Of a stretch of DNA of 64,000 nt, positions 3,633 through 14,918 are shown piece after piece. Under the pieces are notes generated by a model. The model was not told where the DNA came from. It saw only the letters and a list, made by a program, of their open reading frames with translations, and did not search any database. The translations under genes were made by a program, and so were the position numbers. The stretch's first letter is position 1; every line of letters starts with the position of its first letter. The DNA is from Gammaproteobacteria bacterium (GTDB lineage: Bacteria > Pseudomonadota > Gammaproteobacteria > Steroidobacterales > PWYM01), in assembly GCA_007127715.1 (NCBI GenBank), contig SKYU01000004.1:681-64680 (forward strand). The letters run 5' to 3'.

Positions 3633-3655
3633 AAGGTCGATACGACCAAGGTCGA
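3633..3655. promoter_or_regulatory. Array of GGTCG/CGACC half-sites (GGTCG-ata-CGACC-aa-GGTCG) in the divergent porin/crbR intergenic region
   Basis: AAGGTCGA occurs at 3633-3640 and 3648-3655, and AAGGTCGC at 3683-3690. The same half-sites form a perfect palindrome at 4483-4496. Confidence 0.35.
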
Positions 3656-3784
3656 ACAGTGCCGTGTGTCAGAGGCAAGACGAAGGTCGCATGCCGGAGG
3701 TCGCCGAGGGGCTGCTAGACTCGCGGGCATACGGTTGCCGGTCATGCTGGAAGCTGCCGGCCTGACGTTTCCATGGGGGTGCTG

Positions 3785-4468
3785 ATGCCCGCCGGAGCCA
3801 GCTACAAGGTCATCGTGGCCGATGACCATCCGTTGTTTCGTGAAGCGTTGGGGTTGGCCCTCGACCGCGCGCTCGGTGGGGTATCCGTGGTCGAAGCGAG
3901 CACCATGGATGAACTCGAACGGGTCTCGCGGGAGCACGAGGATGCCGACCTGGCGATGCTCGACCTGCATATGCCCGGGGTCCAGGGCTTTTCCGCATTG
4001 GTCTACCTGCGTGCTCATCACCCAGGTCTGCCGGTGTGCGTGATCTCGGCGAATGACAACCCCCTGGTCATCCAGCGCGCCCTTGATCATGGCGCTGCGG
4101 CGTTCATTCAGAAATCCGCCCCGGTAGGCGAAATCCGGGCCGCCCTGCAGGCAGTCCTCGCCGGCGATCTGTGGCAGCCACCGGGCCTCGATCCGCTGGG
4201 CGCCGGGGCCCCTGCGGACGAGCTGGAGGTGGCCGAGCGTATAGGTGAGCTCACGCCCCAGCAGTTCCGGGTCCTCATGATGGTCACCGAGGGGTTGCTC
4301 AACAAGCAGATTGCCTTCGAGCTCGCCATCTCGGAGGCTACGGTCAAGGCTCACATGACTGCGATTTTCCGCAAGCTCGCTGTCAGCAACCGGACCCAGG
4401 CTGTCCTGGTGGCGAGGCGGCTGGCTGTGGACGCCCCTGAGCAGAGCAGCCGAGAATTCAGCGCCTGA
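3785..4468 (+). CDS. crbR: LuxR/FixJ-family response regulator (REC plus LuxR HTH), CrbR-like
   Basis: YKVIVADDHPLFREAL... followed by the phospho-acceptor region DLAMLDLHMPG. C-terminal HTH LTPQQFRVLMMVTEGLLNKQIAFELAISEATVKAHMTAIFRKL. It sits beside a DUF4212/SSS permease pair and an SLC5-domain hybrid kinase. ATG 3785 follows a GGGGG run; ATG 3773 is an alternative. Confidence 0.85.
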   Translation: MPAGASYKVIVADDHPLFREALGLALDRALGGVSVVEASTMDELERVSREHEDADLAMLDLHMPGVQGFSALVYLRAHHPGLPVCVISANDNPLVIQRALDHGAAAFIQKSAPVGEIRAALQAVLAGDLWQPPGLDPLGAGAPADELEVAERIGELTPQQFRVLMMVTEGLLNKQIAFELAISEATVKAHMTAIFRKLAVSNRTQAVLVARRLAVDAPEQSSREFSA

Positions 4469-4482
4469 GGTGGCAGGCGTGC

Positions 4483-4496
4483 ACGACCATGGTCGT
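4483..4496. promoter_or_regulatory. Perfect 14-bp palindrome ACGACCATGGTCGT upstream of the DUF4212/symporter operon (candidate response-regulator operator)
   Basis: Read directly from the sequence. It lies about 90 bp upstream of ATG 4587 and shares CGACC/GGTCG half-sites with 3633-3655. Confidence 0.4.
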
Positions 4497-4586
4497 ATGG
4501 GCAGTCGCGGCGCGCGCGCCTAGACTGCGGGCAGCCTGGCGGTACATCCCGTGCCGGCAGGGGGGTCTCGAGGGGGAGCACAGCCA

Positions 4587-4853
4587 ATGACGAACGAGAA
4601 GTCCGCCGCGGCATACTGGTCGGCGAATCTGCGCATCATCATCATCTGCATGGCCATCTGGGCGCTCGTATCCATTGGCTTCGGGATCGTCCTGCGGCCG
4701 GTACTGGCCATGCTGCCCATCACGATCGGCGGCACAGATCTCGGTTTCTGGTTCGCGCAGCAGGGCTCGATCCTCACGTTCATCGCCCTGATCTTCTACT
4801 ACACCTGGTATATGAATCGCCTCGACCGCCGCTTCGGCGTAGACGAGCAGTAA
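4587..4853 (+). CDS. DUF4212 small membrane subunit of a sodium:solute symporter
   Basis: MTNEKSAAAYWSANLRII... with two TM helices and FWFAQQGSILTFIALIFYYTWYMNRLD, typical of DUF4212. GAGGGGGAG RBS upstream of ATG 4587. It ends 12 bp before the symporter gene. Confidence 0.85.
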   Translation: MTNEKSAAAYWSANLRIIIICMAIWALVSIGFGIVLRPVLAMLPITIGGTDLGFWFAQQGSILTFIALIFYYTWYMNRLDRRFGVDEQ

Positions 4854-4865
4854 GGAGGCGGTGAC

Positions 4866-6638
4866 ATGGACCAGTATGTTCTCAACCTGATCGTTGTCGG
4901 CGCCTCGTTCGCGCTGTATGTCGGAATCGCCATCTGGGCCCGTGCCGGGAGCACGGCCGATTACTACACGGCCAGCCGCGGCGTAAACCCCGTGGTCAAC
5001 GGCGCGGCGACCGCAGCCGACTGGATGTCCGCGGCCTCGTTCATCTCGATGGCTGGATTGATCGCCTTCGTGGGTTACGGTAATTCGAGCTATCTCATGG
5101 GCTGGACGGGCGGCTACGTCCTGCTGGCTCTGCTGCTCGCCCCGTATCTGCGCAAGTTCGGCCGGTTCACGGTGCCGGAGTTCATCGGTGACCGGTTCTA
5201 CAGCCAGAGTGCGCGGATTGTCGCCGTCATCTGTCTGCTGGTGATCTCCATCACCTATGTCATCGGTCAGATGACCGGTGCCGGCGTCGCCTTTTCCCGG
5301 TTCCTGGAAGTGCCGAACACCACGGGCCTGGTCATTGCCTCGACCGTCGTATTCATTTATGCAGTACTTGGCGGCATGAAAGGCATCACCTACACGCAGC
5401 TCGCGCAGTACTGTGTCCTGATCACCGCCTACACCATTCCTGCCGTGTTCATCTCTCTGCAGCTGACCCAGAATCCGGTACCGGCGCTCGGGCTGTTCTC
5501 CACCCACGCCGAATCCGGTATGCCGCTGCTGACACGGCTGGATCAGGTTCTGACCGAGCTCGGGTTCCATGATTACACCGGGCACCACGGGACCACCCTC
5601 AACATGGTGCTCTTCACCCTGTCGCTGATGGTCGGTACCGCAGGGTTGCCGCACGTGATCATCCGTTTCTTCACGGTGCCCAAGGTGGCGGATGCCCGCA
5701 AGTCGGCCGGCTGGGCGCTGGTGTTCATCGCGCTGCTCTATCTGACGGCACCGGCAGTTGGCGCGATGGCCAAGCTCAATATCATCACGACGCTCTATCC
5801 CGACGGGACCAGCGAGCCGCCGATTGCCTACGAGGACAAGCCCGACTGGATGAGCAACTGGGCGCAGACCGGGCTGTTGCAGTTCGAGGACAAGAACGAG
5901 GACGGACGCATCCAGTACTACAACGACCGTTCCGAGGCCTTCGCGGAAGTCGCCGCCGAGCGCGGTTGGGAAGGCAACGAGATCGTGGTTTTCAACCAGG
6001 ATATCCTGGTGCTGGCGAATCCCGAGATCGCGCAGCTGCCCGGCTGGGTGCTCGCGCTGATCGCCGCCGGTGGGCTGGCTGCCGCGCTGTCGACGGCGGC
6101 GGGATTGCTGCTGGCCATCTCCTCGGCCATCAGTCATGACGTCCTGAAGTCGGTGCTGACGCCAGGGATCAGCGATCGCCAGGAGCTGCTGGCCGCGCGC
6201 GTCTCGATGGCCTTTGCCATCGTGCTCGCCACCTGGCTTGGCCTCAATCCACCGGGCTTCGCCGCCCAGGTGGTCGCGCTCGCCTTCGGTCTGGCGGCCG
6301 CGACCCTGTTCCCGGCGCTGATGATGGGCATCTTCTCCAAGAAGATGAATACCCAGGGTGCGGTCGCCGGCATGCTGGTCGGGCTGTTCAGCACGCTGCT
6401 CTACATCTTCACCTACCTCGGATGGTTCTTCGTACCGGGGACGGCCATGTTGGATAACGTACAGGAGAACTGGCTGTTCGGCATCTCGCCGCTTTCGTTC
6501 GGCGCTGTGGGTGCGATGCTGAATTTCGGTTCCGCCTGGCTGGTGATGAAGTTCACCAAGGCACCGCCGCCTGAGATCCAGGAGCTGGTCGAGAGCATTC
6601 GCGTGCCGCGAGGCGCGGCAGCGGCCATCGATCACTGA
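4866..6638 (+). CDS. Sodium:solute symporter family permease (ActP-related, the type paired with DUF4212)
   Basis: 590 aa with about 13 TM segments. SSS-type N-terminus YYTASRGVNPVVNGAATAADWMSAASFISMAGLIAF. AAGGAGG RBS upstream. Confidence 0.9.
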   Translation: MDQYVLNLIVVGASFALYVGIAIWARAGSTADYYTASRGVNPVVNGAATAADWMSAASFISMAGLIAFVGYGNSSYLMGWTGGYVLLALLLAPYLRKFGRFTVPEFIGDRFYSQSARIVAVICLLVISITYVIGQMTGAGVAFSRFLEVPNTTGLVIASTVVFIYAVLGGMKGITYTQLAQYCVLITAYTIPAVFISLQLTQNPVPALGLFSTHAESGMPLLTRLDQVLTELGFHDYTGHHGTTLNMVLFTLSLMVGTAGLPHVIIRFFTVPKVADARKSAGWALVFIALLYLTAPAVGAMAKLNIITTLYPDGTSEPPIAYEDKPDWMSNWAQTGLLQFEDKNEDGRIQYYNDRSEAFAEVAAERGWEGNEIVVFNQDILVLANPEIAQLPGWVLALIAAGGLAAALSTAAGLLLAISSAISHDVLKSVLTPGISDRQELLAARVSMAFAIVLATWLGLNPPGFAAQVVALAFGLAAATLFPALMMGIFSKKMNTQGAVAGMLVGLFSTLLYIFTYLGWFFVPGTAMLDNVQENWLFGISPLSFGAVGAMLNFGSAWLVMKFTKAPPPEIQELVESIRVPRGAAAAIDH

Positions 6639-7156
6639 TGCTGCTGGAATTCATCGCCGCGATCGCGCTGGGGCTGGGCACCGCCGGTGTGGCCATGGCC
6701 CTGAACCTTGCCCTGCGGCGGCGGTTGCCGGCCTGGACGGTGCCGGCGGCGGCCGGACTGGCGATGATCGGGTTCATGGTGCACATGGAATACGCCTGGG
6801 CCGAACGCACCACGGGACAGCTGCCGGACGGCGTGGTCGTCGCCTCGACCGGCCAGACGGTCTCCTGGTATCGGCCCTGGACCTGGATCAAGCCGCTGGA
6901 ATTGCGGATTCTGGCAGTGGATACCCGCCGCAGCCGACGTCATCCAGACGCGCCGGGACAGGTCATGACCACCGTGATACTGCTGGAGCGCTGGATGCCG
7001 ACGCGGGAGATTCCGGTGGTGTTCGACTGCCTCGGCGCACGTCGTGCAGATCTGCATGCTGGCGTGGAACTGGCAGCAGATGGTCGGCTGGAAGGTGCAA
7101 CCTGGCGGCAGATCGGTGCCGAGGACCCTGCCCTGCGTGTGGCCTGCGGCGCCTGA
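6638..7156 (+). CDS. Hypothetical membrane protein (two N-terminal TM helices plus a soluble domain)
   Basis: The ATG overlaps the symporter TGA (TGATG at 6636-6640). Coding-like third-position GC. I recognise no family motif. Confidence 0.55.
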   Translation: MLLEFIAAIALGLGTAGVAMALNLALRRRLPAWTVPAAAGLAMIGFMVHMEYAWAERTTGQLPDGVVVASTGQTVSWYRPWTWIKPLELRILAVDTRRSRRHPDAPGQVMTTVILLERWMPTREIPVVFDCLGARRADLHAGVELAADGRLEGATWRQIGAEDPALRVACGA

Positions 7157-7165
7157 CTGGCGATC

Positions 7166-10100
7166 TCAATGCAGGCCCCGCGACGAGGTGGCGCGGTGGG
7201 GGGGCGCGGTAGCGAGTCGGCCCAGCAGAGCGCGAAGTGCCGCAGGCTTGAGCGGTTTGGTCAGAACCCGCAGGCCGATGGTGCGCGCCCGTTCCCGCAC
7301 CGTTTCGCTCTGGTCGGCGGTGATCAGGATGCCTGGCAGCGTTGGCATCGCCCACTGTTCGCGCAGCGCAGCCATGACTGACAGCCCGTCCTGGCCGTCA
7401 TCGAGATGGTAATCGACCAGCACCACATCGGGTGGAGCCGCGCGCCTTGCCAGCAGCTGACGCGCGTCCGCGCCGCTGGTTGCTGTGAGTACCTCGCAGC
7501 CCCACGGCCGTATCAGCGCACCCATCCCTGCAAGGATGTCTTCCTCGTTGTCGATACACAGCACCACGAGTCCCGTCAGGTCCTGGGGATTGCGCCGTCT
7601 CGCTGGACGTGTCAACGAGGTTGTCTCTCCAGCGCGTGCAAGCGGTACCGTGATTTCGAACACCGTGCCATGGCCCGGGCGCGAGCGAACCTGGACCGGG
7701 TGATCGAGCATTCTGGCGACACGTTCCACGATCGCGAGCCCCAGTCCGAGTCCCCGTCCCTGGCCGCGCTGTGCGCCCTGCAGGCGGTGAAATTCGCGGA
7801 AGATCGCTTCCGTCTGATCGGCGGGGATTCCCGGGCCGGTATCGAGAACCTGGATGACCAACTCACCGGCCCGCCTGCGGCAGCCGAGCAGCACGCGACC
7901 GGAGGGTGTGTAACGCAGTGCATTGGAGAGGAAGTTCTGCAGGATCCGGCGCAGCAGTTTCGGATCGGAACGTACGGTCGCACTGCAGTCGATACGGTCG
8001 AAACGCAGCCCACGTTCCGCGGCCAGGGCCGAGAATTCGGCATACAGCGGGTCCAGCAGCTCCGAGACCGGGAAGCTCCGCAGCTCCACCGGCATGGCGC
8101 CCGCGTCCAGCCGCGAGATGTCGAGCAGCGCACTCAACAACTGCTCGGCACTCTCGAGCGCGCCGTCCAGCCGCTCCACCAGGTGTTGCTGTTCAGAGGT
8201 CTGCCCGGGGAGCTGGGCCAGCGACGAGGCAAACAGCCGGGCGGCATTCATCGGCTGGAGCAGGTCATGGCTGGCCGCCGCCAGGAAACGGGTCTTGGAC
8301 TGGTTGGCCTCGTCGGCCGCCGCCTTGGCCACCCTCAGCGCCTCTTCGACCCGCGCGCGCATGGTGACCTCGCGCCGCAGCTCGGCGTTGAGTCCGGTGA
8401 GTTCACGGGTGCGTTCGTCGACACGCTGCTCAAGCCCGCCCAGCGCCTCGGTCAGGCGTTTTTCACTGTCACGAAGCGCGGCTTCAGTCCGCCGCCGGGC
8501 GGTCACGTCGGTGAAGCTGGTCACGAAGCCACCGCCCGGCATGGGGTTGCCGCGGATCTCGATCACCCGGCCATCGGCGCCGACGCGTTCGTAGTAATGC
8601 GGGCTGCGCTGGCGCAGCCAGGCCATGCGACGCTCGACCAGTGTGGCGATCTCGCCCTCGCCGAGCCAGCCGCGGCGTGCGTTGAACTCAAGCACCTCGA
8701 CGATCGGGCGGCCGATATGAATCAGGCCTTCCGGGTAGTCGAACAGCCGCAGATACGCCCTGTTCCAGGCGACCAGGCGGAATTCAGCGTCGATCACGCT
8801 GATGCCCTCGGAGAGGTTTTCCATGGCCGACTGCAGCAGTTCCTGCCGGAACTTGAGGCGCTGGGAGGTCCGGTCGAGGAGGCGGACGACCGCGTCGAAA
8901 CGCATGCCTGTCCCCGCGAGCGCGGAGGTCAGCACCTGGCGTGCGGAACTCGCCCCGATGACGCCAGACAGCACCCGTTCGGTATGCTGCAGCAGCTCGC
9001 CATCGGCGGGCTGGTCCTCATGCAGCGGCTGTCCGCGCTGTCGGGCGTACGCCTCGAAGGTCTGGCGGCTTCGGCTCTCTCCAAGGAACCGCTGGGTCAG
9101 GGCCATGAAATCGCCGACCTTGGCGATCCCGACACCGGGCAGGGCGTCGGCAGTCGCGCCGAGGGCCGCGCCGTGGAAGGCGTTCGCCTGGATGCGGTCG
9201 ATGGGCCGTTCCTGGCCGGCCCAGGTTCCGGCCAGCAGTCCGCCAACGTTCATCAGCAGCGACCAGAATACGCCGTGGCTGAGGGGGTCGTCGAAGCGGC
9301 TGCCGAAAAGCGCCTCGGGTCTCAGCCAGGCGATCCCCAGCGGCCCCTCGTCCAGCCAGCCGGTCAGCACGCCCGTGCCCTGCAGGATCACCGGCAGCAT
9401 CAGGCAGTAGAACCACCCGGCGAAACCGAGCGAGAGCCCGAGTGTGGCGCCATGGCGGTTGGCGCCGCGCCAGTACGCTGCCGCGACCATCAGCGGGCCG
9501 AACTGGGCGACTGCGGCGAACGACAGCAGCCCGATGCCCGCCAGCGTCTCCGCATAGCCGAACAACCGATAGTAGCCCCAGGCGAACAGCAGCAGTGCGA
9601 CGATGACCAGCCTGCGCACCCCCAGCAGGAGTCGCCCGAGGTCGGCTTCCCCCGCCGCGCGCGCGGCATGTCTGCGCAGCAGCGCGGGCATCACGATGTC
9701 ATTGGACACCATGGTGGACAGGGCCACGGCCGCGACGATCACCATGCCGGTTGCCGCAGAGAAGCCGCCGATCATGGCGAGCAAGGCCAGGCCATGTTGT
9801 CCCGCAGACAGGGGCAGGGCGATCATGAAGGTGTCGGAGGGCACGCCGCGCTCGAAGCTGAGCAGTCCGGCCACGGCGATCGGCACCACGAACACGCTGA
9901 TCAACACGAGGTAGGCCGGGAAGAGGATCCGCGCCCAGCGCACATCGCGCTCGCTGGTGCTCTCCACCACGGCCACATGAAACTGTCGGGGCAGACAGAA
10001 TATGGCCAGCATCGACAGGAGAAGGATGGTGAAGAAGCTGAGCGTGAGCGCATCCGGTGCGAACATGCCCGCCACCACCGCGTCGTCGATCCGCAGCGGA

Positions 10101-10849
10101 TCGAGCGTGTTCAGGCCATCGAACATGAACCAGGTGACGAAAACACCGACTGCGAGGAACGCCAGGAGTTTCACCAGCGATTCGAACGCCACTGCCAGCA
10201 TCAGGCCCGGGTGATGCTCGGTCGCGTCGAGCTGCCGGGTTCCGAACAGGATGGTGAACAGCGCGAGCAGCAGGGCCACGAGCAGGGCGGTGTCGGTGAG
10301 CAGCGCCCCAGGGGTATCGGCCACGGCGACGCCATTGTCCGTCGGCCCCGTCAGCAGGGTGAATCCCATGGCGATGCCTTTCAACTGCAGCGCGATGTAG
10401 GGCAGTACCCCCAGCGTCGCGACCACGGTGACCAGCACGGCCAGGCCCTGAGTTTTGCCGAAACGCGAGGCCAGGAAGTCCGAGATCGACGTGATGTTCT
10501 GTTCCTTGCTGACCCGGACGATGCGCACGATGAATCCGCCCAGCACGACGAACATCAGTGCCGGACCGAGGTACACCGGCAGGAAATCCCAGCCGTTGGT
10601 CGCAGCCTGACCGACCGCGCCATAGAACGTCCAGGAGGTGCAGTACACTGCAAGCGACAGGCTGTAGATCACTGGCTGTGCAAACAGACCGCGCCCACGT
10701 CGCGCGTAGCGGTCACCCCACCAGGCGATCAGGAACAGCAGCGCCACGTAGGCCAGCGAGACGGTGACGATGAAGGCAACTGAAAACACGACTGCTGGGC
10801 CTGGCCGAAAGGCTCCCGGTGGCGTCCACACATGGGCCGCTCGGATCAT
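7166..10849 (-). CDS. crbS: Hybrid sensor histidine kinase with N-terminal SLC5/sodium-solute-symporter-like domain, PAS, HisKA, HATPase and REC (CrbS-like)
   Basis: Multi-TM SSS-like N-terminal half, then a PAS segment (NLSEGISVIDAEFRLVAWNRAY). H-box AAASHDLLQPMNAARLF. ATPase G-boxes VLDTGPGIP and GRGLGLGLAIV. C-terminal receiver VLCIDNEEDIL...VLVDYHLDDGQDG. The start is set at ATG 10849. The 75 codons upstream in the ORF are Pro/Arg-rich and look non-coding. Confidence 0.9.
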   Translation of the reverse strand: MIRAAHVWTPPGAFRPGPAVVFSVAFIVTVSLAYVALLFLIAWWGDRYARRGRGLFAQPVIYSLSLAVYCTSWTFYGAVGQAATNGWDFLPVYLGPALMFVVLGGFIVRIVRVSKEQNITSISDFLASRFGKTQGLAVLVTVVATLGVLPYIALQLKGIAMGFTLLTGPTDNGVAVADTPGALLTDTALLVALLLALFTILFGTRQLDATEHHPGLMLAVAFESLVKLLAFLAVGVFVTWFMFDGLNTLDPLRIDDAVVAGMFAPDALTLSFFTILLLSMLAIFCLPRQFHVAVVESTSERDVRWARILFPAYLVLISVFVVPIAVAGLLSFERGVPSDTFMIALPLSAGQHGLALLAMIGGFSAATGMVIVAAVALSTMVSNDIVMPALLRRHAARAAGEADLGRLLLGVRRLVIVALLLFAWGYYRLFGYAETLAGIGLLSFAAVAQFGPLMVAAAYWRGANRHGATLGLSLGFAGWFYCLMLPVILQGTGVLTGWLDEGPLGIAWLRPEALFGSRFDDPLSHGVFWSLLMNVGGLLAGTWAGQERPIDRIQANAFHGAALGATADALPGVGIAKVGDFMALTQRFLGESRSRQTFEAYARQRGQPLHEDQPADGELLQHTERVLSGVIGASSARQVLTSALAGTGMRFDAVVRLLDRTSQRLKFRQELLQSAMENLSEGISVIDAEFRLVAWNRAYLRLFDYPEGLIHIGRPIVEVLEFNARRGWLGEGEIATLVERRMAWLRQRSPHYYERVGADGRVIEIRGNPMPGGGFVTSFTDVTARRRTEAALRDSEKRLTEALGGLEQRVDERTRELTGLNAELRREVTMRARVEEALRVAKAAADEANQSKTRFLAAASHDLLQPMNAARLFASSLAQLPGQTSEQQHLVERLDGALESAEQLLSALLDISRLDAGAMPVELRSFPVSELLDPLYAEFSALAAERGLRFDRIDCSATVRSDPKLLRRILQNFLSNALRYTPSGRVLLGCRRRAGELVIQVLDTGPGIPADQTEAIFREFHRLQGAQRGQGRGLGLGLAIVERVARMLDHPVQVRSRPGHGTVFEITVPLARAGETTSLTRPARRRNPQDLTGLVVLCIDNEEDILAGMGALIRPWGCEVLTATSGADARQLLARRAAPPDVVLVDYHLDDGQDGLSVMAALREQWAMPTLPGILITADQSETVRERARTIGLRVLTKPLKPAALRALLGRLATAPPHRATSSRGLH

Positions 10850-10857
10850 AACAGGCT

Positions 10858-13086
10858 GTGGGGCGGCGCCGGCCGCCAGCGGCAGGGGGTGACGTGCGCG
10901 GCATCGACTGGCGACAGCTGCTGGTGGTCTCCGCGGTCGGGGGCCTGTGTCTGGCGTGGCTGGTGGTCGCCGGGGGGCTGCTGCGAGCGGTGCTCGGGGA
11001 CGAGGACTGGCAGGCGGTGACGGCCCTGCTGGGCGGACGTGTCGGCCTGCTGGTGCTGCTGTGGGCACTGGCACTGGTGCCAGTGAGTCTGCTGGTCGGT
11101 CAGTTGCTGGAGCGCTACGTCCGCGCCCCGGCCCGCCTGGCCGGGGCGCTGCGTGCAGCGCTGCATGCCGGAATCCACCACCCGGTGGTCCCTGATGGCA
11201 GCCGAGAGACCCGCGAAATCGCCGAGCTGGTCAATGCGCTGGTGGCTGAGCGGGAAGCGTTGCACCAGGAGATGGACCAGCGCGTCGGTGAGGCGGCGCG
11301 GGCGACCGAACTGGAACGCAACCGGCTGGCGGCACTGATGTCGGAGCTTGCACGCAGCGTGGTCGTCTGCACGCTCGATGGCCGTATCCTCCTGTACAAC
11401 CAGCGTGCGCGGCTTCAATTTCGCCGGCTGTCGCGCGTGGCCGGGCTCACGGGCGGGAACGAGTTGATCGGTCTCGGGCGGTCGATCTATGGCGTGCTGG
11501 ACCGCGAGCTGGTCAGCCATGCGCTGGAAAATGTCCAGCGCCGGCTGGCCCGGGGTGCGGAGTCCCCTTCGGCGCAGTTTGTCACGCCCACCGCGTCGGG
11601 CGGCCTCCTGCGCGTCCAGATGGCGCCTGTGCGTGCGGATGCAGAGGTGTCGCGGCCACAGGATGTTTCCGGCGCAGAAAAGCCGCCTGAGCTGGCCGGG
11701 TTCGTGCTGCTGATCGAGAACGTCACCGAACAGCTGCGTGCCGATGCCGAAGAGGACCGCCTGGTCGCCGGTCTGGTGGAGGACTGCCGACGTCTTGTCG
11801 CCCGCGCACCTGAATTTCTGCCCGTTGCCGACGGCGCGGACGGCCTGCACGAGGATTCGGTCGCCGCCGTGTCCGAGGTGCGTGCGCTGCTGGCCGGCTT
11901 CGAGCGGCGGCTGGAGAAGTTCTCGAACGAGCGCGCCGCCCTGGTGCCTGCGCGCTGGCCTCTGGAGGATATGCTCGGCAGCGAACTGCTGGAGATGCTG
12001 GAGCAGCGGCTCGCCGAGCGGCTGCCCATCGAGATCCGGTGTGATGCCCTGCCGTCACTGGTCTGGCTGCGCGTGGAAAGCTATTCGTTCATGCAGGCGG
12101 TCGTACATCTCGCCGCCCGCGCCTGGCGCGACGCCGGGGCACGCACGCTTCGCGTGGCACTGGTCAGCGACCGCGCACGCGCAGCCGTGCAGTTGTCCTG
12201 GCCTGCCGAGGAGCCGTTGACGGATACGCTGCTCGAGGACTGGACAGGCTCGTCGATGGCGGGGAACGGCGAGGCCGGGCTGTCGGTGTGTGAGGTGCTC
12301 GCCCGCCACGGTGGAGTGCTCGAGACGAGCGGCCCTCAGGAGGGCCGGCTGTACCTGCGCCTCCCCCTGCCGTTGGCGCCACCACAGGAGGAACTGCCCC
12401 AGGCGACCTGGCTGCGCGGGGAGAGCCGGCCCGAGTACTACGATTTCGACCTGTTCCGGGGGTCGGCGCGCGCCAGCTCTTTGGAGGACAGCCGGCTCGA
12501 CGACCTGGTCTTTACCGTTTTCGACACAGAGACCACGGGGCTCGACCCTGGCGGCGGTGACCAGATCCTGCAGCTCGGTGCCGTTCGCATCGTCAACGGA
12601 CGCGTACTCGCGCACGAGAATTTCGAGCAACTGGTCGACCCCGGGCGCGCCATCCCCGTCGCGGGTATCGCCATCCACGGCATCACGCCCGAGATGGTCG
12701 AGGGGCAGCCCGGGATCGAGACGGTCCTGCCGGCGTTTCATGCCTTCTGCGAGGGTACGGTCCTGGTCGCACATAATGCCGCCTTCGATATGCGCTGTCT
12801 GGAAATGGCCGAAGCACGTGCCGGCGTGCATTTCGACCACCCCGTGCTCGACACGCTGCTGCTCTCCGCCGTGCTCTCTCCCGAAGAGTCTTCCCATCGG
12901 CTGGAGAACATCGCCCAGCGTCTGGGGCTGCCGATCATCGGTCGGCATACGGCTATGGGCGATGCACTGGTCACGGCCGAGATCTTCGTGCGGCTGCTGC
13001 CCTTGCTGGCCAACCGGGGCATCGAGACGCTCGCGCAGGCCAGGGAAGCTTCGCGGAACACCTACCTGGCGCGGTTGCGCTACTGA
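10858..13086 (+). CDS. Membrane sensor (2 TM, HAMP-like, PAS-like, degenerate histidine-kinase-like core) fused to a C-terminal DEDDh (DnaQ-like) 3'-5' exonuclease
   Basis: TM helices LLVVSAVGGLCLAWLVVAGGLL and GLLVLLWALALVPVSLLVGQLL. PAS-like segment SVVVCTLDGRILLYNQRA. Exonuclease motifs FTVFDTETTGL, LVAHNAAFDMRCL and HTAMGDALVTAEIF. The start is either GTG 10858 or GTG 10894, the latter following AGGGGG. Confidence 0.85.
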   Translation: MGRRRPPAAGGDVRGIDWRQLLVVSAVGGLCLAWLVVAGGLLRAVLGDEDWQAVTALLGGRVGLLVLLWALALVPVSLLVGQLLERYVRAPARLAGALRAALHAGIHHPVVPDGSRETREIAELVNALVAEREALHQEMDQRVGEAARATELERNRLAALMSELARSVVVCTLDGRILLYNQRARLQFRRLSRVAGLTGGNELIGLGRSIYGVLDRELVSHALENVQRRLARGAESPSAQFVTPTASGGLLRVQMAPVRADAEVSRPQDVSGAEKPPELAGFVLLIENVTEQLRADAEEDRLVAGLVEDCRRLVARAPEFLPVADGADGLHEDSVAAVSEVRALLAGFERRLEKFSNERAALVPARWPLEDMLGSELLEMLEQRLAERLPIEIRCDALPSLVWLRVESYSFMQAVVHLAARAWRDAGARTLRVALVSDRARAAVQLSWPAEEPLTDTLLEDWTGSSMAGNGEAGLSVCEVLARHGGVLETSGPQEGRLYLRLPLPLAPPQEELPQATWLRGESRPEYYDFDLFRGSARASSLEDSRLDDLVFTVFDTETTGLDPGGGDQILQLGAVRIVNGRVLAHENFEQLVDPGRAIPVAGIAIHGITPEMVEGQPGIETVLPAFHAFCEGTVLVAHNAAFDMRCLEMAEARAGVHFDHPVLDTLLLSAVLSPEESSHRLENIAQRLGLPIIGRHTAMGDALVTAEIFVRLLPLLANRGIETLAQAREASRNTYLARLRY

Positions 13087-13097
13087 CCGGAGATGCT

Positions 13098-14918
13098 GTG
13101 ATGAACCGAGCCGAGGGGGTCGAGTTTCTGTCCACGGTGGCGCCTTTCTCGGAGCTGGACCGCGAGGCGCTCGCCGTCATAGCCACGCGGTTCGGGTCTC
13201 GTCGGCAGGCCGCTGGCGAATCGCTGGGACGGTTCGCGCAGCCGGGACGTCACGGCCTGACCGTCATCCGCGAGGGCGCGGTGGAACTTCTCGACGACGA
13301 GGACCGACGCCTGGAACAGCGGGGCGAGGGCGAGCTGTTCGGTCACGCGATCATTCTGGAGGGCGAGGTTCGTGACTATAGGGTCAGGGCGACCGAAGAC
13401 GGTGTGCTCTGGCAGCTCTCTGCCGAGGCGCTCGACGACATCGTCGCGGCCTACCCTCTGGTGGGCCACTTTCTGAGCGCGGCGCCCGGAGAGCGCCTGG
13501 CCGCGGTGGGGGGGCAGACTACCGGAACGCTGGATGACCTGCGTCTGCGTGCGCCCGTGACCGTGACGGCGGACACCCCGGTGACCGAATGTGCCCGGAT
13601 GATGGCGATGCACCAGGTCAGCTGTCTGCCGGTGCTGCGCGGGCAAACGCTGGTGGGGATCGTGACCGACCGCGATCTACGCAGCCGGGTGCTGGCGCGG
13701 GAACTCGATCCGCGTACCGCCATCGCCGAGGTCATGACGCCCCGGCCGCTGACGGCGCACCCGGCCAGTCGCATCGAGGATGCTCTGGTGGAGATGATGC
13801 GTCTGGGCATCCACCATCTCCCCGTGGTCGATGACGGGCAGCGACTGGTCGGAGTGATCAGCGCGGGGGATCTGCTGCGTCGTCAAGCGCCTCATCCGCT
13901 GCGCCTGGTGCGGGACATCCAGCGGGCGATCGATACGGATGAACTGGTCGCCCTCGCGGACCAAGGCCCGGGGCTGCTCGCGGCACTCTCACGCCAGGGC
14001 AGTGAGGTTGGCGAAGTGGGGCGGATCGCCAGCATGATCACCGATGCCTGTACCCGTCGGCTGCTGGCGCTGGCGCAGGCCAGGCTGGGGAAGGCGCCGT
14101 GTGCCTGGACCTGGCTCGCCTTCGGTTCGCAGGCGCGCATGGAGCAGGGTCTGGTGAGCGACCAGGACAACGGACTGCTGCTCGCCGAGACGCCGGATGC
14201 AGACGGCGAGCGGTATTTTCGCGAACTCGCTGTATTCGTCTGCGACGCTCTGGACCGTTGCGGTTATGTGCACTGTCCGGGGGGTGTCATGGCCAAGGGC
14301 CGCTGGCGCATGTCACAGGCGAAATGGCGAGCGGTCTTTGCGGGCTGGATGCATGAGCCCACCCCCGAGTCGGTACTCAACTCCAGTATCTTCTTCGATA
14401 TGCGCGGCGTGGCCGGTGATGTGAATCTGGCCGAGCGGTTGCACGAGGAGGTGCTGGCGCGGGCCAGTGAAGCCCGTATCTTCCTGCGCTTCCTGGCGGC
14501 CGAGTCGATGACCCATACCCCGCCGCTGGGGCTGTTCCGGCAATTCGTCCAGGAGCGCGATGGCCGCCACAGCCACGGTCTCAACCTGAAAAAACGCGGG
14601 GTCCTGCCGATAGTCGATCTGGCCAGGGTGCGCGCCCTCGAAGGCGCCAGTACCGAAGTCGCGACGGAGGCACGGTTCCGGGCCGCGGCGGCGGCCGGGC
14701 TGATGAATGCGCGCGATGCCGAGGACCTGGTCCACGCCTACCGCTTCATCGGGAACATCCGGCTGGCTCATCAGGCGCGCCAGCATGCCCGCGGCGAGGC
14801 ACCCGGCCATCTCGTCGACCCGCAGGATCTCTCGGGGCTGCATCGCCGCTATCTCCGCTCGGCGTTCGGGATCGTCCGCAGCGCGCAGCGTGCGCTGGCG
14901 CAGCGCTACGCGCTCTAG
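13098..14918 (+). CDS. cNMP-binding plus tandem CBS plus DUF294 nucleotidyltransferase plus DUF294_C protein
   Basis: cNMP-binding-like N-terminus (GELFGHAIILEGEVRDYRVRATEDGVLW). CBS pair (VSCLPVLRGQTLVGIVTDRDL and IHHLPVVDDGQRLVGVISAGDLL). Pol-beta-fold NTase motif AFGSQARMEQGLVSDQDNGLLL. The start is 12 bp after the preceding stop (GTG 13098 or ATG 13101). Confidence 0.9.
   Translation: MMNRAEGVEFLSTVAPFSELDREALAVIATRFGSRRQAAGESLGRFAQPGRHGLTVIREGAVELLDDEDRRLEQRGEGELFGHAIILEGEVRDYRVRATEDGVLWQLSAEALDDIVAAYPLVGHFLSAAPGERLAAVGGQTTGTLDDLRLRAPVTVTADTPVTECARMMAMHQVSCLPVLRGQTLVGIVTDRDLRSRVLARELDPRTAIAEVMTPRPLTAHPASRIEDALVEMMRLGIHHLPVVDDGQRLVGVISAGDLLRRQAPHPLRLVRDIQRAIDTDELVALADQGPGLLAALSRQGSEVGEVGRIASMITDACTRRLLALAQARLGKAPCAWTWLAFGSQARMEQGLVSDQDNGLLLAETPDADGERYFRELAVFVCDALDRCGYVHCPGGVMAKGRWRMSQAKWRAVFAGWMHEPTPESVLNSSIFFDMRGVAGDVNLAERLHEEVLARASEARIFLRFLAAESMTHTPPLGLFRQFVQERDGRHSHGLNLKKRGVLPIVDLARVRALEGASTEVATEARFRAAAAAGLMNARDAEDLVHAYRFIGNIRLAHQARQHARGEAPGHLVDPQDLSGLHRRYLRSAFGIVRSAQRALAQRYAL

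Follow-up and report, generated by a model that had tools for sequence, protein, structure and literature searches.

In Pseudomonas and Vibrio, the CrbS/R (= MxtR/ErdR) regulon includes a gene pair in which a gene for a protein with cyclic-nucleotide-monophosphate-binding (cNMP), CBS and DUF294 domains lies beside a gene for a DEDDh exonuclease. The pair is PP_0354/PP_0353 in P. putida, with Pflu5625 and a Vibrio pair as further examples, and it is linked to actP, DUF4212, sodium:solute symporter (SSS) and acs genes. Its biochemical function is stated to be unknown (PMC5715377, PMC9927547, bioRxiv 10.64898/2026.09.07.749794). Published genetics agree with a transport role; pp_0353 and actP-I mutants of P. 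putida both grow poorly on pyruvate (PMC9927547), and in Shewanella and P. stutzeri a nearby gene, called a COG2905 member and encoding an RNase T domain protein, shows cofitness with DUF4212 members (bioRxiv 10.1101/072470). Here we analyse a gammaproteobacterial locus in which a gene for a membrane sensor-pseudokinase-exonuclease fusion protein (open reading frame (ORF) 1, 10858..13086; 'the fusion' below) is followed by a gene for a DUF294 nucleotidyltransferase (ORF2). The locus lies in a stretch of 64,000 nucleotides, positions 681 to 64,680 of contig SKYU01000004.1 (assembly GCA_007127715.1), which as a whole is called the window.

The closest gene pair to this one is PP_0354/PP_0353, the closest working principle is that of DivL/DivK and NifL, and the closest chemistry, by Pfam clan, is that of GlnD/GlnE. 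DivL of Caulobacter crescentus, a membrane-tethered PAS-DHp-CA protein with Tyr at the position of the phospho-acceptor His, binds the phosphorylated single-domain receiver DivK and regulates the kinase CckA. NifL of Azotobacter vinelandii (PAS, H domain and GHKL, without kinase activity) is soluble, binds ADP via an intact GHKL site and sequesters NifA; it has no enzymatic output domain. GlnD and GlnE run the cycles of PII uridylylation and glutamine synthetase adenylylation, where removal is performed by an HD domain or a second nucleotidyltransferase domain, never by a DEDDh exonuclease. Finally, in CbrA/CbrB, CrbS/CrbR and RpuS/RpuR an SLC5/STAC-type kinase is paired with a transcription factor.

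Our main addition to this picture is a conserved kinase-receiver-pseudokinase-exonuclease cassette, of which the window carries a receiver-less variant. The fusion is a member of a conserved family, and its gene usually lies in this cassette. In the literature on DUF294, COG2905, STAC/SLC5 and CrbS/R (open-access papers and preprints) we found no description of the long fusion, of its kinase-receiver cassette or of DUF294 biochemistry; a nuclease as the output of two-component or pseudokinase signalling would be unprecedented.

One genome per species was scanned, giving 542 candidate relatives. The best 80, all full-length, made up the locus sample, and their 10-kb flanks were screened with the proteins of the window and of a Wenzhouxiangella locus. 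The sampled Gammaproteobacteria include Thiothrix, Thioalkalivibrio, Wenzhouxiangella, Colwellia, Competibacter and some Pseudomonas; among the Betaproteobacteria are Hydrogenophaga, Zoogloea, Thauera, Dechloromonas, Accumulibacter and others. At 69 of 78 evaluable loci the gene immediately 5′ of the fusion gene, on the same strand, encodes a stand-alone receiver of 122-124 aa, a pairing that recalls DivL/DivK. The two genes are normally translationally coupled, with the stop of the receiver overlapping the start of the fusion in 46 of 71 loci (median gap -4 nt). The receiver retains D9/D10, D53, T83 and K105, the full residue set of a phosphorylatable receiver. Further 5′, at about 3 kb from the fusion, 57 of 70 loci encode an SLC5/STAC histidine kinase of ~900 aa. 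Over its first 657 residues it shares 43-47% identity with the SLC5/STAC part of CrbS, and a canonical HisKA-HATPase_c core follows. Unlike CbrA, CrbS and RpuS, this kinase is paired with a receiver that has no DNA-binding domain and with the fusion, not with a transcription factor; as far as our searches went, its subfamily falls outside those three described types. The first-pass annotation of the window, made from the sequence without database searches, had overlooked both of these dominant partners, the stand-alone receiver and the kinase directly upstream.

The nucleotidyltransferase is the other frequent partner. A DUF294 gene is found within 10 kb of the fusion in 35 of the 45 loci with full flanks, either just 3′ of the fusion (on either strand) or just 5′ of the kinase; SSS/DUF4212 and acs genes are also frequent neighbours. 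The whole set is present in two operons. In Dechloromonas a single operon contains acs, kinase, receiver, fusion, a bare DUF294 gene, a cNMP/CBS DUF294 gene, a degenerate exonuclease-like gene and DUF4212::SSS. The other lies in the alphaproteobacterium Paracoccus denitrificans PD1222, whose plasmid 1 carries, at PDEN_RS22665-22695, acs, DUF4212, SSS, DUF294, a 165-aa gene, a receiver and a 659-aa '3′-5′ exonuclease' (this example, like the Vibrio one used below, was drawn from a plasmid collection). The conserved linkage of exonuclease and DUF294 genes expected in the first-pass annotation is therefore seen across genomes, Paracoccus included. Its statement that such pairs sit with DUF4212/SSS permeases in CrbS/R regulons and have no assigned function likewise agrees with the papers cited above.

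Individual loci show several further details. The upstream kinase subfamily (L001, L007, L016, L060 and most of L007-L086) lacks PAS_7 and a receiver domain of its own, and the bare receiver replaces the DNA-binding regulator. At about 8600-9400 of locus L031, in a metagenome-assembled genome of Candidatus Intricatilinea gracilis, the kinase core reads as frameshifted into Arg/Pro/Ala-rich nonsense past the H box, which is either an assembly error or a pseudogene. In Candidatus Dechloromonas phosphorivorans (L060, 12150-15816) the bare DUF294 protein has 355 aa and is followed by the cNMP and CBS form of 658 aa. The exonuclease-like protein of that locus (208 aa) has its Exo II and Exo III residues replaced and is, from its sequence, probably inactive.

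We then considered whether the fusion is a genuine gene. Its likely start is GTG 10894, preceded four bases 5′ by AGGGGG; the 730-aa product has the length of an identical database protein (P0001) and of hundreds of homologues. Searches with the N-terminal region recover more than 2,600 homologues when clustered at 90%, or 995 clusters at 50% identity. Almost every complete member measures 705-750 aa, so the N-terminal module is found solely ahead of this exonuclease. A mis-called start, or two genes fused in error, was rejected on this constant architecture, and the gene stands as the true fusion it was first taken for. The best-named relatives of the fusion and of the DUF294 protein come from Wenzhouxiangellaceae and uncultured Gammaproteobacteria.

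The N-terminal part of the protein is nearly silent in sequence searches. Residues 1-540 have no Pfam, NCBIfam or PDB sequence match, and a PDB search with the N-terminal 529 aa found none at E 10. When five sub-regions were searched separately, no Pfam HisKA, HATPase_c or HAMP match appeared even at E = 10, only a weak PAS_4 match (E 0.11, 13.2 bits, cut-off 23.1). Structure models are more informative. AlphaFold models of the fusion (pLDDT ~74) contain long helices, a PAS-like alpha/beta domain, a helical hairpin and a second alpha/beta domain. At the N-terminus, Kyte-Doolittle hydrophobic segments (6-36 and 41-73) fall on modelled helices 6-33 and 36-92, with L20, W22, L23, W57 and A58 invariant in the family alignment. 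The following HAMP-like region, formed by helices 36-92 and 104-150, has invariant A78-P79-A80 and G102-S103 and fits the helix-connector-helix layout expected after the second transmembrane helix. Strand and helix order fits a PAS domain in the next region, and Foldseek alignments to PAS kinases span it.

A Foldseek search of residues 140-500 against the PDB returned PAS-DHp-CA histidine kinases at E 6e-16 to 1e-7, among them WalK 9a5d (E 6e-16), YF1-type LOV kinases, VicK 4i5s, ThkA 3a0r, HK853 and CpxA, together with the non-phosphorylating NifL 9qq6 (E 8e-13) and DivL 4q20. Profile-profile comparison (hhalign) of the fusion core with genuine kinase cores encoded beside family members gave a probability of 93% and E 2.5e-7. 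On these models the core has a histidine-kinase fold. In the hhalign columns the phospho-acceptor His is replaced by Glu (consensus TEGSR, VEDCR in the window), and no invariant His occurs within residues 279-352 of the alignment. The N-box Asn corresponds to a variable position, the G1 Asp to an invariant Trp (Trp-x-Pro), and the G2 glycines are gone. Because these defining residues were checked and are absent, the fusion is not a histidine kinase; with Glu in place of His it should not autophosphorylate, and without N, G1 and G2 boxes it should not bind ATP in the usual way. It thus resembles DivL as a membrane-tethered PAS-DHp-CA protein without the phospho-acceptor His, and NifL in reusing the kinase fold as a non-phosphorylating regulatory scaffold. 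It differs from DivL in having Glu rather than Tyr at the His position and a covalently joined exonuclease rather than a separate kinase as output; moreover, the HATPase_c domain of DivL is recognisable, whereas the fusion gives no Pfam signal. From NifL it is set apart by its membrane anchor, the loss of the GHKL site and the enzymatic domain.

The output domain, by contrast, is readily identified. RNase_T is the only Pfam match in the fusion (residues 554-710 in the 742-aa reading, 127.2 bits, cut-off 24, E 1e-36), and the domain-level NCBIfam model TIGR00573 also passes (87.2 bits against 71.5). The DEDDh catalytic residues, D544/E546 (Exo I, D-x-E), D632 (Exo II) and H685/D690 (Exo III, H-x4-D), are invariant in a 28-sequence alignment, and the domain is predicted to be catalytically intact. 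Its closest solved chain is 2p1j, a PolC-type proofreading exonuclease (E 1e-33). Tests for the epsilon subunit of DNA polymerase III (dnaQ equivalog) failed, with 96.4 bits against 222.7 for TIGR01406 and 89.7 against 196 for PRK05711; with scores so far under the cut-offs, the fusion is not a DnaQ equivalog. Between the CA-like and exonuclease domains lies a linker motif invariant at nine of its ten positions (R512, P513, E514, Y516, D517, F518, D519, L520 and F521), although the surrounding residues 499-527 are modelled as low-confidence or disordered (pLDDT 31-47). The core of the motif, Y-D-F, persists in the distant homologue from Paracoccus, and the short exonuclease family lacks it. 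Possible roles for RPEYYDFDLF are docking, modification or a contact in trans.

Most of the first-pass reading of ORF1 is upheld by these results. Hydropathy, AlphaFold and Foldseek fit its series of transmembrane helices, HAMP-like linker, PAS-like segment and kinase layout; the hhalign columns and Pfam at E 10 agree that an H-box His and N/G1/G2 motifs are missing; and the RNase_T match and invariant DEDDh residues confirm a complete DnaQ-type exonuclease. What fails is the comparison with the small epsilon-like exonuclease of the described pair, of which the window protein was seen as an extended form. The Vibrio short form (237 aa) is only 26% identical and has no transmembrane, PAS, pseudokinase or linker-motif part, and at this identity the long form as an extension of the short one was rejected. 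The described pair further differs in its reversed gene order and in having no dedicated kinase or receiver.

The second gene spans 13098..14918, with the annotated start probably at ATG 13101 (605/606 aa). It begins 12-15 bases past the end of ORF1, so the close spacing noted at first sight holds, whereas the exact figure of 12 bp does not: the gap is 11-14 nt depending on the start chosen. The cNMP domain, two CBS domains and Pol-beta-fold nucleotidyltransferase (GS...DxD) originally read from the sequence were all recovered by Pfam, and the Pol-beta motif (G343-S344, D355-Q356-D357 and the third acidic residue at F433-D434) is invariant across 14 diverse DUF294 partners. PDB searches with the whole protein or its profile matched CBS domains only, and the nucleotidyltransferase part alone matched nothing. 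A homologue search recovered Wenzhouxiangellaceae relatives only and did not reach the Pseudomonas pair. DUF294_C belongs to the GlnD/GlnE-type substrate-binding clan (PMC3710099), and DUF294 and DUF294_C share the nucleotidyltransferase and substrate-binding clans, respectively, with GlnD/GlnE.

We next asked how the dead kinase module relates to the receiver. Neither a stand-alone receiver nor a second SLC5 kinase is present anywhere in the 64-kb window. The DHp-like hairpin of the window fusion is 23% identical to other members, versus 64% among those members, and its transmembrane, PAS, linker and exonuclease regions reach 0.84-0.98 of the conservation usual in the family. The ratio of DHp to core identity is 0.20-0.46 in five of the eight evaluable receiver-less fusions (the window included); receiver-linked fusions have a mean of 0.78 and a 5th percentile of 0.58. 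Each of the five diverged fusions has a receiver-linked relative that is nearer to it than the other receiver-less fusions are. In 64 pairs of a fusion and its linked receiver, the divergence of the receiver is best matched by that of the CA-like and DHp-like regions. Once the exonuclease and PAS signal is removed, the partial correlation with the receiver is 0.53 for the CA-like region, 0.36 for the DHp-like region, 0.23 for the HAMP-like region, 0.20 for the transmembrane region and -0.09 for the linker. These comparisons all point the same way and suggest a tie between the receiver and the dead kinase module.

The explanation we consider best, which we hold tentatively and stop short of calling probable, is a receiver-gated exonuclease that opposes the DUF294 transferase and so tunes monocarboxylate uptake. 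The SLC5/STAC kinase would phosphorylate the stand-alone receiver, and the phospho-receiver would dock on the degenerate DHp/CA module in the way that DivK~P binds the pseudokinase DivL; that the fusion family binds its receiver in this mode is something we infer. Docking would switch the tethered exonuclease, which would remove 3′-linked nucleotides added by the cNMP/CBS-gated DUF294 enzyme; candidate targets are RNA 3′ ends, nucleotidylated proteins and short oligonucleotides. Such a write/erase cycle would adjust monocarboxylate uptake and assimilation post-transcriptionally. The proposed logic, a metabolite-gated writer and an eraser that control assimilation or transport, is like that of GlnD/GlnE, with a DEDDh exonuclease as the unlike element. 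In Vibrio, DUF294 is also paired with a short DEDDh exonuclease of a second, unrelated family, which makes a stronger case for a substrate shared by transferase and exonuclease. A more specific version strikes us as rather doubtful: a new type of two-component output in which a transporter-like SLC5/STAC kinase signals through a bare receiver and a dead kinase module to a membrane exonuclease that erases the nucleotidyl marks of a cNMP/adenylate-sensing DUF294 enzyme. These marks might be RNA tails, or oligo-nucleotidyl chains attached to a Tyr in a protein of transport or assimilation.

Several points weigh against this explanation. Pseudomonas strains deleted for the pair are only mildly affected (PMC9927547 among the sources), and the exonuclease of that pair is of the other, short family. 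Roughly one locus in five, e.g. that of Thiothrix anitrata, has no DUF294 gene within 10 kb, and the strand of the gene varies. Receiver docking is suggested by gene order, correlated divergence and analogy; the DHp-ratio and correlation tests are phylogenetically non-independent, and three receiver-less loci (L062, L064 and L080) keep a normal DHp-like region. All three candidate substrates, RNA, a protein adduct and an oligonucleotide, are compatible with the results. Since the window has no receiver, the receiver control step cannot apply there as stated. The exonuclease of the window is probably controlled via its own transmembrane/HAMP/PAS input or by the neighbouring CrbS, and the fusion would still work with the adjacent DUF294 protein. 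Lastly, a simple pattern scan found no ACTU-like motif in the crbS-fusion intergenic region (10790-10893), and direct CrbR control of the fusion promoter via such a motif is unsupported.

Among other explanations, the one that survives best, although we regard it as unlikely, is a signal-gated membrane RNase that trims or degrades specific mRNAs or small RNAs (e.g. transporter, acs or glyoxylate-shunt) independently of DUF294, which would in turn nucleotidylate a protein in GlnD/GlnE fashion. RNase T and oligoribonuclease are themselves DEDDh enzymes. For pp_0353, Henriquez et al. proposed a role in mRNA degradation (PMC9927547), and Price et al. speculated that symporter expression depends on the partner gene (bioRxiv 10.1101/072470). 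The clan of DUF294_C and the loci without a nearby DUF294 gene also fit this reading. However, the pairing of two unrelated DEDDh families with DUF294 argues for a shared substrate cycle, and the exonuclease domain is nearest to PolC/DnaQ proofreading domains, not to RNase T.

It is less probable still that DUF294 responds to cNMP and adenylate charge by synthesising a second messenger, a linear or cyclic oligonucleotide, with the membrane exonuclease, set by kinase-receiver input, as its phosphodiesterase. Pol-beta-fold enzymes such as cGAS/CD-NTases and OAS do make nucleotide messengers, a DEDDh oligoribonuclease clears pGpG, and the genes of the two enzymes are tightly linked; yet the conserved gene set contains no evident messenger receptor or effector, and by Pfam clan DUF294 groups with the protein-modifying GlnD/GlnE. 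A nuclease for DNA proofreading, repair or DNA uptake is very improbable. It is hinted at by database names ('DNA polymerase III subunit epsilon', '3′-5′ exonuclease') and by best NCBIfam and PDB matches to PolC, DnaQ and DinG exonuclease domains. Apart from the domain-level TIGR00573, those NCBIfam matches are far below cut-off; the conserved neighbours are transport, acs and signalling genes rather than replication or repair genes, and P. putida pp_0353 is dispensable for DNA consumption (PMC9927547). An unusual but active histidine kinase phosphorylating the neighbouring receiver is hardly credible, and was rejected on the hhalign motif columns: kinase fold and adjoining receiver gene notwithstanding, the region has Glu in the His column, a hairpin without invariant His, no N, G1 or G2 box and no HisKA or HATPase_c signal, and a canonical kinase is already encoded upstream.

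Coordinates of the locus are collected in Table 1; neighbour identities come from Pfam or NCBIfam and from gene calls on the identical public contig (L004). The crbS gene diverges from the fusion gene across an intergenic region of 105 bp, and crbR lies 6 kb upstream of the fusion, so both regulators adjoin the pair. The window crbR-like regulator is 73% identical to its Wenzhouxiangella limi homologue, which adjoins crbS and acs. Candidate repeats were found with the pattern [GT]AC-N4-GT[CA] rather than the published weight matrix; those at crbR match ACTU sequences of PMC5715377, as does the DUF4212 repeat its consensus (GAC-N4-GTC core). The 172-aa protein has no Pfam or NCBIfam match, and its start overlaps the symporter stop. 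It has homologues at the same position in Wenzhouxiangella and Thioalkalivibrio (62-64% identity), and the 165-aa protein inside the Paracoccus denitrificans operon is also homologous (32% identity, E 3e-21); the 172-aa protein appears to be a conserved component of the module that had escaped recognition. Downstream of the DUF294 gene are unrelated genes (NnrU, SnoaL, TonB-dependent receptor). Three long antisense ORFs, 7406..10783 (+, opposite crbS), 10846..11850 (-, opposite the fusion) and 4458..6635 (-, opposite the symporter), were rejected as artefacts of high G+C (67%, range 63-69%), because they have no Pfam match where tested while the opposite strands have clear homologues.

Table 1. 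Features of the locus, in nucleotide positions of the window; residue numbers refer to the fusion protein.
Feature	Position	Strand	Evidence
ACTU-like inverted repeat TACGACCAAGGTCGAAC, 5′ of crbR	3644-3660		pattern scan
ACTU-like inverted repeat AAGACGAAGGTCGCAT, 5′ of crbR	3679-3695		pattern scan
crbR-like response regulator, REC + GerE/LuxR helix-turn-helix	3773-4468	+	Pfam Response_reg and GerE on the same gene of identical contig L004
ACTU-like inverted repeat CACGACCATGGTCGTAT, 5′ of DUF4212	4485-4501		pattern scan
DUF4212 small symporter subunit	4587-4853	+	Pfam DUF4212 on the same gene in L004; 84% identity to Wenzhouxiangella DUF4212 protein
VC_2705-family sodium:solute symporter	4866-6638	+	NCBIfam TIGR03648, 811.8 bits (cut-off 320.75); Pfam SSF, E 1e-51
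172-aa protein without known family, hydrophobic, likely membrane-spanning N-terminus	6638-7156	+	
CrbS-type SLC5/STAC-PAS_7-HisKA-HATPase_c-REC hybrid histidine kinase	7166-10789	-	Pfam; NCBIfam NF041832, 460.6 bits (cut-off 400)
Sensor-pseudokinase-exonuclease fusion, 730 aa	10894-13086	+	ORF 10858-13086
Two-helix membrane hairpin, residues 6-73, six-residue loop GDEDWQ	10909-11112	+	hydropathy, AlphaFold
HAMP-like helix-loop-helix and coiled coil, residues 74-150	11113-11343	+	
PAS-like domain, residues 151-278	11344-11727	+	
DHp-like helical hairpin without phospho-acceptor His, residues 279-352	11728-11949	+	hhalign
CA-like (Bergerat-fold) domain without N, G1, G2 boxes, residues 353-497	11950-12384	+	
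Linker motif R-P-E-Y-Y-D-F-D-L-F, residues 512-521	12427-12456	+	
DEDDh (DnaQ/PolC-type) 3′-5′ exonuclease domain	12499-13083	+	Pfam RNase_T; full catalytic set
DUF294 nucleotidyltransferase gene	13101-14918	+	Pfam
cNMP-binding domain	13209-13451	+	Pfam, 39.3 bits (cut-off 27.5)
CBS pair	about 13533-13883	+	Pfam
Nucleotidyltransferase domain (DUF294, PF03445)	13971-14369	+	140.9 bits, E 3e-41
DUF294_C (PF10335)	14478-14909	+	145.8 bits, E 1e-42

The gene set is widespread in proteobacteria, and no biochemistry has been assigned to it since 2017. The long form provides a handle on it, since a dedicated kinase, a receiver, a pseudokinase scaffold and an intact nuclease are gathered in one operon, including that of the tractable Paracoccus denitrificans PD1222. 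If the model is true, an exonuclease would join the short list of two-component outputs, receivers that signal 'backwards' through a dead kinase would have a second example in this family, and a nucleotidyl write/erase cycle may act on acetate, pyruvate or lactate uptake. Carboxylate uptake matters for the interaction of Vibrio and Pseudomonas with their hosts and for the wastewater organisms Accumulibacter, Dechloromonas, Competibacter and Thiothrix, which all carry the family. On the more specific and rather doubtful version above, bacteria would have a switch that controls carboxylate uptake by reversible nucleotidylation, much as GlnD/GlnK/AmtB operates in nitrogen control.

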